A model generated the notes under the pieces. It was not told the DNA's origin, did not search any database, and was given only the letters and a program-made list of their open reading frames with translations. The translations under genes were made by a program, and so were the position numbers. A stretch of 64,000 bases of DNA, from NCBI GenBank assembly GCA_963762985.1, contig CAVXMK010000010.1, positions 460,909-524,908 of the forward strand, read 5' to 3'. Position 1 is the first letter of the stretch, and each line of letters starts with the position of its first letter. The DNA is from an uncultured Chloroflexia bacterium. GTDB taxonomy: Bacteria; Chloroflexota; Chloroflexia; Thermomicrobiales; UBA6265. Positions 191-59,603 of the stretch are shown here, one piece after another.

Positions 191-953
191 CTACGACACG
201 CCCGCCATTTCGCGTGTCCGGGCGCTATCGAGTCTCAGGGCGGCAACGTTGGCCATTGCCTGCGCCAGGTCCAGCTCACCCTCGTTGAGGCGAAACGGCT
301 CGCCGTTCTTGTCGGCAAGAATGCTTCCCGACGAACTCCTCACCGCGGCGAATCGGGACGATTAGGAGCGAGTTGACGTTGATCAGATCGGCAGGCACCT
401 GCCGCCCCGCCAGGTCCTCCACGACCGCCTTCGCCGGCTGGAAGAGGTCGAGGGTAAACGACGAGCCCTCGACCGGCATGTCCTCCGGCAACCCCGTCAG
501 CGGCGGTCCGTACGTGCCGACTCGCACCGCGCGCCTCCGGGCGTCGTCGAGAATCCTGATCTCGACCCGCCGCAGCCCCAGGGTTCCGGCCAACCGTTCC
601 GCGAGCAATCCGTAGAACTCCTCACGCGGCGTCCCTGCCGTGGCCGCGAACAGCGCCTCGTACATCGACGCCAGCCTGCTGGCCAGTTCGACGCGCTCAG
701 CCGACGCCAGATCGAGCAGCGCCGGCGTCGCTTCCGGGTTGGGCTCCCGGCGGCGGTACTTGCGCGGCGCGCGTTCCCGCATGGGACGCCACTCGCGCAA
801 ATCCTCGGACGTGATCAGTGCCATCCGCCCCAACCGCGTCGCGGGTAACTTCCCACGCCGCACCGCACGGGACACAGTGTGGTACGAGACGCCCTTGAGC
901 CGGGCGGCCTCGGCCATGGTGTAGACATCGCCGCTGCCAGTCACATCGTTCAC
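191..953 (-). pseudogene. Excisionase/MerR-type HTH plus GAF-domain regulator, frameshifted as sequenced (+1 near 325-327)
   Basis: ORF 276-953 starts with the HTH YTMAEAARLKGVSYHTVSRAVRRGKLPATRLG, followed by a GAF-like body ending ...LLIVPIRRGEEFVG. The expected continuation SILADKNGEPFRLNEGELDLAQAMANVAALRLDSARTREMAGVS* is in the adjacent frame and stops at TAG 191-193. Confidence 0.7.
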
Positions 954-1148
954 GCGAGTCTCCTCCTGCGGTGGCCCAGTCCCCGGAGCCGGGCCTCGAA
1001 TGCTTGTGGGGTGCGCCGCTCAGTGGCGACTCCGATGGATGGCGCAAACCAATGGTACACCCTCTTCCAGATTGCGACAATTTCGGCTTGCCGCCTTTTC
1101 ACTTTATCAAAGCATGGCAACGCGAATAGAAGCTCGCAAACTGCATGA

Positions 1149-1177
1149 GAACGCGGATTTGGATCGATTCCGCGTTC
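1149..1177. promoter_or_regulatory. Candidate operator: perfect 9-bp inverted repeat GAACGCGGA-N11-TCCGCGTTC in a divergent promoter region
   Basis: It lies in the lower-GC 354-bp gap between the minus-strand HTH-GAF regulator and the plus-strand hyi-garR pair. Confidence 0.3.
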
Positions 1178-1307
1178 GTTCACGACAATGTGTGACTCCT
1201 ATTCACGGGCGTCCACCAACTCGTTGCGCCACACCCACCCGTTTGACCGCAATTCTCGTGCCGACTAGGATGCGCCCGGTCGGTTTTCCGGCAAACGAGG
1301 AGGCAGC

Positions 1308-2105
1308 ATGCCAAGATTTGCGGCCAATCTGTCGATGCTCTTCACGGAGCATCCGTTTCTGGAACGCTTCGCGGCCGCAAAGAAGGCCGGTTTTGAAGCC
1401 GTGGAGTTCCTTTTCCCGTACGAATTCGACACGGCGGCCATCGCCCGGGAGCTGCGGAGCAACGGTCTGCAGCAGGTGCTGTTCAACCTTCCGGCGGGCG
1501 ACTTCGCCGCGGGCGATCGCGGCATGGCGAACGACCCGGCTCGGGTGGAGGAGTTCCGTGCCGGCGTAGCCCGGGCGATTCAGATCGCCCGCCAGTTCGA
1601 GAGTGGCCGCCTCAACTGCCTGGCCGGGCTGCGCCTGGCTGACGTGCCGGAAGAGACGCAGTCCGCCACCTTGGTCGACAACCTCCGGTACGCGGCGGAC
1701 GCCGCGGCGGAGGCGGGCATCCGGCAGGTGGTCGAACCCCTCAACGTCTTCGATGCCCCAGGGTACTTCCTGCCCACGCCGGAGGCGGGGTTTGCCCTCG
1801 TCGAGCGGGTGCATCATCCCAACTGCTTGCTCCAGTACGATGTCTATCACTCGCAACGGATGAGCGGGAATCTGGCTGCGACCATCGCCGCCCGCATCGG
1901 CCTGATCGGGCACGTGCAGATCGCCGACAGCCCCGGCCGCCACGAACCCGGAACGGGGGAGATCAACTATCCCTTCGTCCTGCAAGCCCTGGATGACGCG
2001 GGGTACGATGGCTGGGTGAGTCTCGAGTATCGGCCGCGGGAGTCAACCGAATCGTCGCTACGATGGATGACCGAGATGGGCTACTGGCCCGCGACCAACG
2101 TCTGA
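1308..2105 (+). CDS. hyi: Hydroxypyruvate isomerase / 2-oxo-tetronate isomerase family (Hyi/OtnI) TIM-barrel protein
   Basis: 265-aa ORF MPRFAANLSMLFTEHPFLERFAAAKKAGFEAVEF... ending ...GWVSLEYRP, full length for the family. GAGGAGG sits 4 nt upstream of the ATG. Confidence 0.88.
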   Translation: MPRFAANLSMLFTEHPFLERFAAAKKAGFEAVEFLFPYEFDTAAIARELRSNGLQQVLFNLPAGDFAAGDRGMANDPARVEEFRAGVARAIQIARQFESGRLNCLAGLRLADVPEETQSATLVDNLRYAADAAAEAGIRQVVEPLNVFDAPGYFLPTPEAGFALVERVHHPNCLLQYDVYHSQRMSGNLAATIAARIGLIGHVQIADSPGRHEPGTGEINYPFVLQALDDAGYDGWVSLEYRPRESTESSLRWMTEMGYWPATNV

Positions 2106-2117
2106 GGGGAGGGTGGC

Positions 2118-57149: not shown

Positions 57150-57222
57150 CGCACCCGTCCTCGAATTCACGTCGCGCGGCACCCGCCGGAAGCCTCCAAT
57201 GAGCGCGGACGTTCTCAACTAT

Positions 57223-57313
57223 CGTGTCATTCCGAGGAACGAGGAATCTCTGCGTTCCATAGACAGTACGTGCCCTGAGCCCGAGTTGCTTCGTTCCGTA
57301 CAGCATGACACGC
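57223..57313. repeat. Inverted pair of REP type 2 units (CGTGTCATTCCGAGGAACGAGGAATCTC ... GTACAGCATGACACG)
   Basis: The right unit is the reverse complement form CGTGTCATGCTGTACGGAACGAAGCAAC. The pair lies between the Gfo/Idh/MocA and CoA-transferase genes. Confidence 0.6.
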
Positions 57314-57335
57314 TTTGCGGTGGCGCCTTACCCAG

Positions 57336-58339
57336 TCAATCCACGGCAACCCGGACCGCGCACCCGGTCTCGGCCGCTTCCCGCACCGCCAACGCCATCG
57401 CCAGCGAACGAACACCGTCTTCTCCGCTAGCCGCTGGCTCACCCTCCCCTCGCACCGCGGCGTTGAAGCGCGCCACGGACCGCTCATAGAGGTTGCCATG
57501 CTCGATCGGCACCTGCTCTTCACTGCCGTCGCGCCGCAAGGTGACCGTGCCCACGGGACGCTGCGTCATCACATCCCTGCCGTAGAGCGAGCCGTCCGTG
57601 CCGTGGACCTCGAACCCGGTGTAGGCGTGCCGGCACCGTGAACGCGTCGTGGAACTGAGCCAGCACACCGCCGCGGAAGCGCATCACGCCCATCACGGCG
57701 TCCTCCAACCCGGCTCTGGGCCATCCCCTGGTTGGCCGTCATCGCGGTCACCTCGTCGACCTCGTCGTCGAGCACAAAGCGCAGTGTATCGGCATCGTGA
57801 ACGGTGATATCGAGGATGACCCCGCCTCCCGATTCCGGCCGTTCGATGCGCCAACCCTGCAAATGCGCGGGAAGATAGACGGCATGAAACACCCGCGCCG
57901 CGAGCGGCTGGCCAATGGCGCCGTCGGCAACGAGTTCGCGCATCGCCCGATGCGCGGCGGCGTTCCGCAGATGGTGATTGGTGCCCATGACGACGCCGGC
58001 GGCGCGGCACGCCTCGACCATCGCCCGCGCCCCTTCCAGGGTCAGCGCCAGCGGTTTTTCGCAGAGAACATGCTTGCCGGCAGCCGCCGCCGCCAGCACC
58101 TGCGGCTCGTGCCACTCGTTGGTCGAGCTGATGTAGACCGCGTCGATGTCCGGATCGGCCAGCAGATCATCAACCGTGGCATGGACCTTCGGAATGCCCA
58201 GCTCCGCGGCAAACGCGCCTGCCCGCGCCAGCATCCGAACTCGCCAGGCGACAACCTCACTATCGGGTTGCGCGGAAATGGCCGGCGCCATCCACTCCCG
58301 CCCGATCGTACTCGCCCCAATCAACCCCCACCGCACCAT
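57336..58339 (-). pseudogene. Gfo/Idh/MocA-family NAD(P)-dependent oxidoreductase, two +1 frameshifts (~57713, ~57632)
   Basis: [16 protein letters not shown]...[33 protein letters not shown]... up to [12 protein letters not shown]. Then [26 protein letters not shown]. Then [22 protein letters not shown]...[21 protein letters not shown]...*. The ATG at 58339 lies behind AGAAGAGG. Confidence 0.82.
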
Positions 58340-58376
58340 GCACACCTCTTCTCTCGACTTTCGACTTCAACTCGAC

Positions 58377-59603
58377 TCACTGATAAATGATCACATCCGG
58401 CGACGGCACCAGCGCCAGAATCTCCCGCGCCGCCATGACCGGCACATCCTGCCTGATAGAAAAGCTTGACCCCGGCAAACTCCACCGGTTCGTCACGCAC
58501 CAGGAAGTTGTACACCGCCGTTTTCAGCTCCGGCGCACCATACCCGTCGGCGTCGATCACGAGTTGCACTCCTGGATAGGGCACCAAGCTGCTCTTTGTT
58601 GGTAATCATGTCCTCGCGGAACTGATGCACTACGAGCAATTTGGGCGGAATCCCGTGCGTCGCCGAGATCTCCGCCAGCACCTGCTGTGCGTAGGTAATG
58701 CTCTCTGCCGTCACGGACCCAATGTACTCGCCCGGGATTTGCCCCTCCGCGACGGCGAACTCCGGATCGATGGCCAGATGCACGTGGGGGAAAGCCAGCA
58801 AATCGCGCACTTTTTCGATCTCGCTCGCCACCGTTCCCCGCCCGAGCTGAAGATCGAGGATGACCAAATGCCCGTTAGCCGCGGCGTAGTCGATGTAGGT
58901 CGTCAGCGTCTCCCGCGAGGTGTCGAGGATGTAGGTACCGTCGAACGCCGGGGTCCCGCTGGGCCACCGTGGCGATGAGCTCGAACGCCGGCACCACCGG
59001 CCGCGAGGGATCGGCCGCCGCATAGTTCGCGGCTTCTATCTCCAGCAACGCCGCCACCTCGTCGATGGCGAGCTCCCCGACGATCCCCATCGCCGGATCG
59101 TGCGGGTGCCCGTAGTAGCTCACGATCCGGTACTCCGGCAGAAGCGGGCCATCCGGCGGAGACGCCAACGGAGCCGTCGCCGGCGCCATGGCCAACTCCG
59201 GCGGTTGCGCGAGCTGAGGAGGAGGAGCCGCGGCGAACCCGTCACCGTCCACGTCAGACGCGGCTTCCACCGCGGCGACCGATGCCGTCGGCGCCGAGGT
59301 CGGCTCGGCGGGTGCCGCCATCGTCGGTTCAATGAGCACTGCTGGCGGCACATTGGTCCGAGACTGGGTCGGTACGCCGCTGGGAACCGAACCACTGCCC
59401 AGGAGCGTGGCCAACGCCACCGCAAGCGAAACGACCACCATGAACCCCGCGCTCATGGAGCGTTCGTCGGGCACCCAGGCCGGCAAGCGCAGGCGCAGCG
59501 GTTTTCGTGATGCCGGCGGCGGAGCATCAGCGGCAAGCCACTCCGACGAAAACGGCCGGGGCCCGTCCGGGCGCGAAGCGTGGGATGCCATCCGCCCTGG
59601 CAT
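58377..59603 (-). pseudogene. Membrane-anchored/secreted conserved protein of unknown function, three +1 frameshifts (~58954, ~58586, ~58452)
   Basis: TM segment MSAGFMVVVSLAVALATLLG, a Pro/Ala-rich linker, then YRIVSYYGHPHDPAMGIVGEL...PAFELIATVAQR / TPAFDGTYILDTSRETLTTYIDYAAANGHLVILDLQLGRG...HLAIDPEF...LLVVHQFREDMITNKEQL / VPYPGVQLVIDADGYGAPELKTAVYNFLV...GVKLFYQ / QDVPVMAAREILALVPSPDVIIYQ*, across four frames. Confidence 0.6.

Follow-up and report, generated by a model that had tools for sequence, protein, structure and literature searches.

The window analysed here is a stretch of 64,000 nucleotides from an uncultured Chloroflexia bacterium of the Thermomicrobiales (contig CAVXMK010000010.1, positions 460,909 to 524,908), in which conserved genes are split by single-base frameshifts. 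Alignment with relatives identified about 39 insertions and three deletions that are private to the window, all of them exactly 1 bp long (93% insertions, a ratio to deletions of ~13:1). The genes broken in this way include those for enolase (eno), phenylalanyl-tRNA synthetase (pheS and pheT) and histidinol dehydrogenase (hisD), a BFD-like gene, an O-methyltransferase gene, an NTF2-like gene and nearly all genes of a sugar-acid operon. We consider it very probable that the extra bases are consensus errors of a long-contig metagenome assembly and not part of the organism's DNA, and that most of them represent the alleles of two genotypes written in tandem. This tandem-allele signature is the new finding of the present analysis.

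The window has a G+C content of 67%. A protein search with the stitched enolase returned only metagenome-assembled genomes of Thermomicrobiales (Chloroflexota), the best at 92% protein identity and none identical. Gene order is kept in seven Thermomicrobiales genomes across 3-27.5 kb of the window, at 70-86% nucleotide identity. Protein searches led to the closest relatives, two contigs of JGI metagenome 3300045996 (L167/L168 and L169), whose identity to the window is 90-92% at 21.6-36.3 kb and 83-91% at 48.1-58.5 kb. The sugar-acid operon is also present on four further contigs (L081-L086), and on all of these contigs, L167/L168 and L169 included, the genes are intact. Overlapping 1.5-kb pieces of the window were aligned to 13 syntenic relatives with MAFFT, and an event was called private when it occupied an alignment column in which the window alone has, or alone lacks, a base. 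The relatives, which are 8-25% divergent, also served as a proxy for the alleles present within the population.

An earlier note, made from the letters and reading frames of the window alone, had listed about 35 frameshifts, ~90% of them +1 insertions, had placed several in essential genes and most outside homopolymers, and had proposed asking whether the extra bases are absent from close relatives. They are absent from all aligned relatives, and no indel site is common to the window and any of these. In clean alignment context, the window carries 36 private indels of 1-2 bp in 40.9 kb aligned (0.88/kb; 32 insertions, 4 deletions), whereas the 13 relatives together carry 14 in ~176 kb (0.08/kb; 8 insertions, 6 deletions), with 0-3 in each of them. 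The frame jumps listed earlier were reproduced at almost all positions to within a few bases, and the events in eno, pheS and pheT are private with respect to the relatives. Seventeen of the 25 unambiguous insertions have no identical neighbouring base, and runs of at least three account for only 3 of the 25, in line with the earlier impression of sequence context. Conserved non-coding DNA is affected as well (59720, 59743). No methylation-type motif such as GATC was seen around the event sites, which were inspected by eye only, without a formal test.

The most informative property of the insertions is the identity of the added base. Most sites show a pair of bases, XY, in the window opposite a single column of the relatives, and this column is variable: some genomes carry X there and others carry Y. 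The inserted base equals an allele of the relatives at the adjacent column in 24 of 34 insertions, and in 24 of the 30 for which at least three relatives could be compared. The null placed one base at gap-free positions chosen at random, no more than 450 nt from each event, and treated it with the same best-deletion procedure; 7.4 matches were expected, and not one of 200,000 simulations reached 24 (maximum 19). The result did not depend on whether the null base followed genome composition (binomial P = 1.5e-9) or was kept as observed. Of 30 insertions in coding sequence, 20 have one resolution of the doublet that is synonymous, mostly at the third codon position, and such doublets look like natural polymorphism, although this measure is only weakly discriminating. 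The window therefore has both alleles of one site standing in tandem, which is the mark of a consensus that draws on two co-assembled genotypes or on collapsed copies.

We propose that reads of a second, closely related genotype, either a co-occurring strain or a near-identical second copy, may have been piled onto the contig. At a single-nucleotide difference, alignment of noisy reads could render the mismatch as an insertion plus a deletion, and the consensus might then keep both alleles side by side (XY for X or Y), which would lengthen the sequence by one base and shift the frame. A two-genotype consensus of this kind would thus be biased towards insertions, would place them outside homopolymers and would bring no extra substitutions. 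A minority of the events may be ordinary indel noise, for example the 58226/58246 pair, the three deletions and the events that fall in short runs of G or C. It is possible to ask whether random long-read indel noise, arising where coverage is low and without a second genotype, could explain the whole set. Consistent with this are the uniform length of 1 bp, clustering on the scale of read lengths, the few events in short G or C runs, and the fact that long ENA contigs of relatives are error-rich as well. However, such noise predicts the number of allele matches expected under the null and not the number observed, private substitutions are not in excess in the most densely affected block, and errors of the Nanopore type are reported to be mainly homopolymer deletions (PMC12007338), the opposite of the spectrum found here. 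We therefore regard noise alone as an improbable explanation.

The distribution of the events along the window was analysed by simulation. The maximum count in 11.5 kb is 25 (14.4 expected) and the largest event-free gap is 12.5 kb (5.1 kb expected); both values, as well as the nearest-neighbour distance between events, have P < 2e-4. Within the denser of two affected blocks (block B in the table below) spacing is close to random. The uneven density described earlier, with its peak in the operon at 48-59.6 kb, is thus borne out. There are no private events in 21.6-34.0 kb or in 59.75-63.07 kb. Among the causes that had been offered for the unevenness, a collapsed repeat or divergent haplotype fits best in view of the doublets, genuine decay of the operon finds no support, and low-coverage noise does not predict doublets. 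Under the proposed mechanism errors would arise only where the two genotypes differ, and because of this kilobase-scale blocks with ~2 errors/kb would stand beside clean blocks. Block B adjoins an 11.8-kb segment (36,350-48,112) that is missing from the closest relatives, and co-occurring strains often differ at regions of this kind.

If the frameshifts were real, the operon and several housekeeping genes would be decaying as pseudogenes in this lineage. The frameshifts are indeed present in the deposited sequence, the dense block does adjoin a strain-variable segment, and many frameshifted genes are also typical of bacterial genomes in decay, such as those of reduced or host-restricted bacteria. 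The window differs from these in lacking stops, deletion bias and relaxed selection, and in having essential genes affected. Once the private bases are removed and the three gaps filled, each affected gene becomes one stop-free open reading frame (ORF) of the length found in relatives; this was established for eno, pheS, pheT, hisD, a 368-amino acid (aa) gene, the substrate-binding protein gene, GH88, the enoyl-CoA hydratase (ECH) gene, a 753-aa GMC fusion gene, and the CoA-transferase, Gfo and 358-aa genes. Pfam matches are full length after correction (O-methyltransferase and GAF domains), and neither internal stops nor larger deletions remain; the earlier note had seen none apart from IS and DUF4397 remnants. 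Relative rates were tested for the five operon genes with the heaviest damage (2,177 codons, 2-4 frameshifts each), for which L083 and L085 served as outgroups. Changes on the window branch number 26 (non-synonymous) and 50 (synonymous), against 44 and 69 on the branch of the intact sister L168; the ratio is thus not above that of the sister, and nothing indicates that selection on the window branch has been relaxed. Decay is also not a reasonable explanation because eno, pheS and pheT, which are essential, carry 2-3 events each, because all events are 1 bp, because insertions prevail 13:1, and because non-coding DNA is affected. The spectrum has neither the length range nor the deletion bias of bacterial pseudogenes (a bias that Mira, Ochman and Moran are said to have described in 2001), and decay offers no mutational explanation for the allele doublets. 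The preference for consensus error over gene decay voiced in the earlier note is therefore upheld by the privacy of the events, the restored ORFs and the absence of relaxed selection, together with the non-coding events, the ~13:1 ratio and the uniform length, and we judge real pseudogenes to be very unlikely.

Real insertions could also be tolerated if the frame were restored by programmed ribosomal frameshifting or transcriptional slippage. The genes otherwise look functional, which is the sole point in favour of recoding and not specific to it. We consider recoding excluded for all practical purposes, since no site is common to any relative and most sites have neither a homopolymeric nor a slippery context; moreover, up to four sites occur in one gene, and non-coding DNA is affected too. 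A last variant would be recent, real +1 insertions in living Thermomicrobiales, in which the allele of a donor was set beside that of the recipient and the frame is somehow restored; they might come, for example, from a burst of errors by a faulty polymerase or repair system while the cell recombined with a diverged strain. We know of no mutational process that produces tandem-allele doublets, and we hold this scenario, too, to be highly improbable.

Long-read metagenome assemblies, above all those from soil, are known to suffer from frameshifts (PMC13087279, PMC12007338, 10.1101/2021.08.23.457338), which are looked for by checks of the IDEEL type (PMC13087279). The window resembles the cases treated by Kastor (PMC12007338), by the proovframe preprint (10.1101/2021.08.23.457338) and by the checks in PMC13087279 in that (i) private 1-bp indels split conserved genes into adjacent ORFs, (ii) comparison with relatives restores the genes, (iii) the damage is on a long contig and (iv) truncated proteins have been deposited. 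The MinION case that Kastor describes in detail consists mostly of homopolymer deletions, whereas insertions predominate in the window, mostly outside homopolymers and confined to blocks. A parallel that fits the doublets and blocks is the collapsed long-read assembly of Trypanosoma brucei Lister 427, in which nearby allelic variants led to misaligned reads and INDEL errors, and in which the apparent frameshifts disappeared after phasing (PMC8445201); here, too, collapsed alleles would appear as frameshifts. By way of general background, one large soil project uses metaFlye followed by one round of Medaka (PMC12313526).

Several points weigh against the consensus of two genotypes that we favour. 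The second genotype in the reads, the platform, the assembler and the software step responsible are all things that we infer. Ten of the 34 insertions have no allele match, although for 6 of these 10 the relatives are too few or too distant, and relatives that are 8-25% divergent are an imperfect stand-in for alleles within a population. To our knowledge, tandem-allele insertions have not been formally described for a specific polisher. In the first dense block (A), 8 of 10 inserted bases are A on the + strand, while A makes up 17% of the sequence; the inserted bases of block B are mixed. The doublet model does not predict this excess of A, which may stem from the alleles that the second genotype carries or from a bias of the caller. 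Finally, T. brucei is a diploid eukaryote that was sequenced with PacBio and analysed with phased reads, while for the window the additional strain or repeat copy is deduced from relatives only.

The same damage is present in public records. Three proteins that are identical to window proteins (P0121) or cluster with them (P0366, P0370) all lie on one NCBI/ENA contig of 526,924 bp, to which the window belongs. The frameshifts are already in the public record, since P0370, the GMC fusion protein, is called there as 689 aa (usual length, 753). Homologs of the NTF2-like gene on ENA contigs of 10-140 kb are frameshifted too, at other positions, while those from JGI and Logan are intact; the damage therefore tracks the source of the data and not the lineage. 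One of the ENA contigs (L170), which is related to the segment at 36-48 kb, bears the name 'contig_198720' in ERZ25039469, in the style of Flye. Its gene calls are badly fragmented, and with 45 gap openings in 3.1 kb its alignment was decisive at 37810 only. As a separate observation, P0371, P0372, P0375, P0377, P0381 and L170:10001-10774 are out-of-frame translations of NTF2-like genes on long ENA contigs, several of which stand as public cluster representatives, and a frameshifted NTF2-like query returns matching 'garbage' tails that can be mistaken for conservation.

All events and blocks are collected in the table. Three of the events listed earlier have a different interpretation: the supposed -1 shifts at 18070 (pheS) and 51775 (GH88) are each a pair of +1 insertions, and a third event in eno (16201) is absent, as removing two bases restores the whole ORF. 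The insertion reported at 34922 in a 'GNAT' gene is confirmed (34923), but the product is a conserved 368-aa protein that matches neither GNAT nor any other Pfam family. The -1 at 10158 is confirmed as a private deletion, and adding one base there brings back the RTRAGMGxCQGIFC motif of the BFD-like protein together with a single ORF. Events that had been missed are the deletion at 52304, the insertion at 53202, the 58226/58246 pair and the non-coding events at 17642, 34058, 59720 and 59743. Where close relatives are lacking or the exact site could not be placed, namely in the O-methyltransferase, HTH_17-GAF regulator, NTF2-like, ABC ATPase and BFD-like genes, the events were checked through domain matches, homologous reading frames, the start codon or the restored motif. 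The event in the HTH_17-GAF regulator was judged without a close relative; its unstitched ORF has no GAF match. In the ABC ATPase gene, the ATG that overlaps the permease stop is out of frame with the conserved IPVIEARGLVKRYG stretch.

Table. Private single-base events and blocks of the window (doublets are given with the alleles of the relatives; a dot stands where no strand is assigned)
Position	Strand	Event and gene	Evidence or remark
326 (+/-10)	-	+1 insertion, HTH_17-GAF regulator	stitching restores GAF models to the C-terminal end (GAF_3 8-128/129)
10158	-	1-bp deletion, BFD-like [2Fe-2S] gene	private gap vs L066 and L002
16309-16310	-	+1 insertion, eno	doublet AG; A or G
16636-16637	-	+1 insertion, eno	doublet TA; A, C or T
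17642	+	extra A, T-box leader of pheS	ambiguous: variable non-coding RNA sequence
18061	+	+1 insertion (A), pheS	private vs 7 relatives; allele match
18076	+	+1 insertion (A), pheS	with 18061 mimics a -1
18123	+	+1 insertion (A), pheS	alignment with relatives
19245	+	+1 insertion (A), pheT	doublet AG; A or G
19335	+	+1 insertion (A), pheT	doublet AG; A, G or T
19674	+	+1 insertion (G), pheT	doublet GC; C, G or T
21564-21565	+	+1 insertion, hisD	private; no allele match
34058	.	extra C, intergenic, DeoC / 368-aa gene	private vs L167 and L169
34923	+	+1 insertion, conserved 368-aa gene	private; no Pfam match
37810	+	+1 insertion (C), secreted NTF2-like gene	intact homologs pass from frame 3 to frame 1; extra C vs L170
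38006-38009 (~38007)	+	+1 insertion, NTF2-like gene	homologs pass from frame 1 to frame 2
44134-44147 (~44139)	+	+1 insertion, O-methyltransferase	one base out extends Methyltransf_2 match from 1-192 to 1-210 of 210
48870-48908 (~48885, position inferred)	-	probable +1 insertion, first ~12 codons of ABC ATPase	net +1 vs L168
50451	-	+1 insertion (G), Peripla_BP_4 binding protein	private vs L168; Pfam profile split at 148/149 between two ORFs
50965	-	+1 insertion (T), Peripla_BP_4 binding protein	private vs L168
51775	-	+1 insertion (G), GH88	alignment with relatives
51795-51798	-	+1 insertion, GH88	with 51775 mimics a -1
52179-52183	-	+1 insertion, GH88	alignment with relatives
52304	-	1-bp deletion, GH88	alignment with relatives
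52643	-	+1 insertion, ECH	doublet CT; C or T
52712	-	+1 insertion, ECH	doublet GA; A, G or C
53202	-	+1 insertion near ECH start	doublet CG; C or G
55320-55322	-	+1 insertion, gluconate-2-dh3/GMC fusion gene	alignment with relatives
55425	-	+1 insertion, GMC fusion gene	within run of four G
55757	-	+1 insertion, CoA-transferase	doublet CG; G or C
55869	-	+1 insertion, CoA-transferase	doublet AG; G or A
55948	-	+1 insertion, CoA-transferase	doublet GC; G, C or T
56169	-	+1 insertion, CoA-transferase	doublet GA; A or G
57632-57634	-	+1 insertion, Gfo/Idh/MocA	alignment with relatives
57715-57716	-	+1 insertion, Gfo/Idh/MocA	doublet TC
58226-58246	-	compensating insertion (~58226) and deletion (58246), Gfo/Idh/MocA	20 nt apart; ~7 codons recoded
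58454	-	+1 insertion, conserved 358-aa first operon gene	doublet TG
58588	-	+1 insertion, conserved 358-aa first operon gene	doublet AG
58944-58947	-	+1 insertion, conserved 358-aa first operon gene	alignment with relatives
59720	.	extra A, highly conserved non-coding block	doublet AG; G, A or T
59743	.	extra G, same non-coding block as 59720	alignment with relatives
16310-21565	.	error-dense block A	10 events in 5.3 kb (1.9/kb)
21566-34057	.	clean block	12.5 kb without private frameshifting indel
48870-59743	.	error-dense block B	25 events in 10.9 kb (2.3/kb)

A number of features of the window deserve mention in their own right. In this group of Thermomicrobiales, a gluconate 2-dehydrogenase subunit-3 domain is naturally fused to a GMC oxidoreductase (753 aa; window 53243-55527, - strand; compared in L081-L086 and L168). 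The fusion gene belongs to a conserved operon with genes for a CoA-transferase, an enoyl-CoA hydratase, GH88, a Gfo/Idh/MocA dehydrogenase and a 358-aa protein without a Pfam domain. The transporter of the operon is a fructose-type (ribose-like) ABC system in the window and L167/L168, and is of the SBP_bac_1/BPD_transp_1 type in L083 and L085. A non-coding block of ~190 nt (59640-59830) lies between the divergent sugar-acid operon and a Mur-ligase-like gene. Judged by eye, some stretches of it hardly vary over five genomes, with no variation resembling that of third codon positions, and the prediction for the + strand is a GC-rich hairpin with a CCUCC stretch after it; the block could be a candidate for an undescribed leader, riboswitch or operator region. 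An Rfam search of 59.45-59.95 kb gave no match, and RNAalifold on 5 sequences of the block gave no convincing structure.

Upstream of pheS there is a T-box leader (17559-17790, + strand; full model 1-219 of 219, E = 2.5e-13). Its score of 62.5 bits is below the Rfam gathering score of 93, and it is therefore missed by a default scan; the private extra A at 17642 lies in its stem I region. At gathering thresholds Rfam found nothing in the window, and no tRNA genes were found there. The window, with its high G+C content, has many long antisense ORFs. One of 817 aa (13455-15908, - strand), antisense to pepF (M3 oligoendopeptidase; 13974-15875, + strand), was rejected as spurious over most of its length. 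Its last ~35 codons (~13455-13570) match a treble-clef zinc finger (PF23477, 38 bits), and there may be a small real gene at this place.

The segment 36350-48112 is absent from L167/L168 and L169, where the ABC ATPase gene adjoins an MR_MLE gene, and is probably a strain-variable island. Its G+C content rises to 72% at 36-38 kb, and it encodes a secreted NTF2-like protein, a META-domain protein, a cupredoxin, a GH15 glycosidase, the O-methyltransferase, an MFS transporter and a DUF1269 protein. The best metagenome matches of the GH15 protein are only ~58% identical and were of no use for comparing DNA.

The value of these observations lies in a warning about database entries and in a comparative signature of error; they tell nothing new about the organism. 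Errors of this type lower estimates of genome completeness and create false calls of pseudogenes. The tandem-allele signature is detectable from comparative data alone and could be used to flag collapsed-strain errors in long-read metagenome-assembled genomes. As regards the bacterium itself, its enolase, phenylalanyl-tRNA synthetase, histidinol dehydrogenase and sugar-acid operon genes should be treated as intact.

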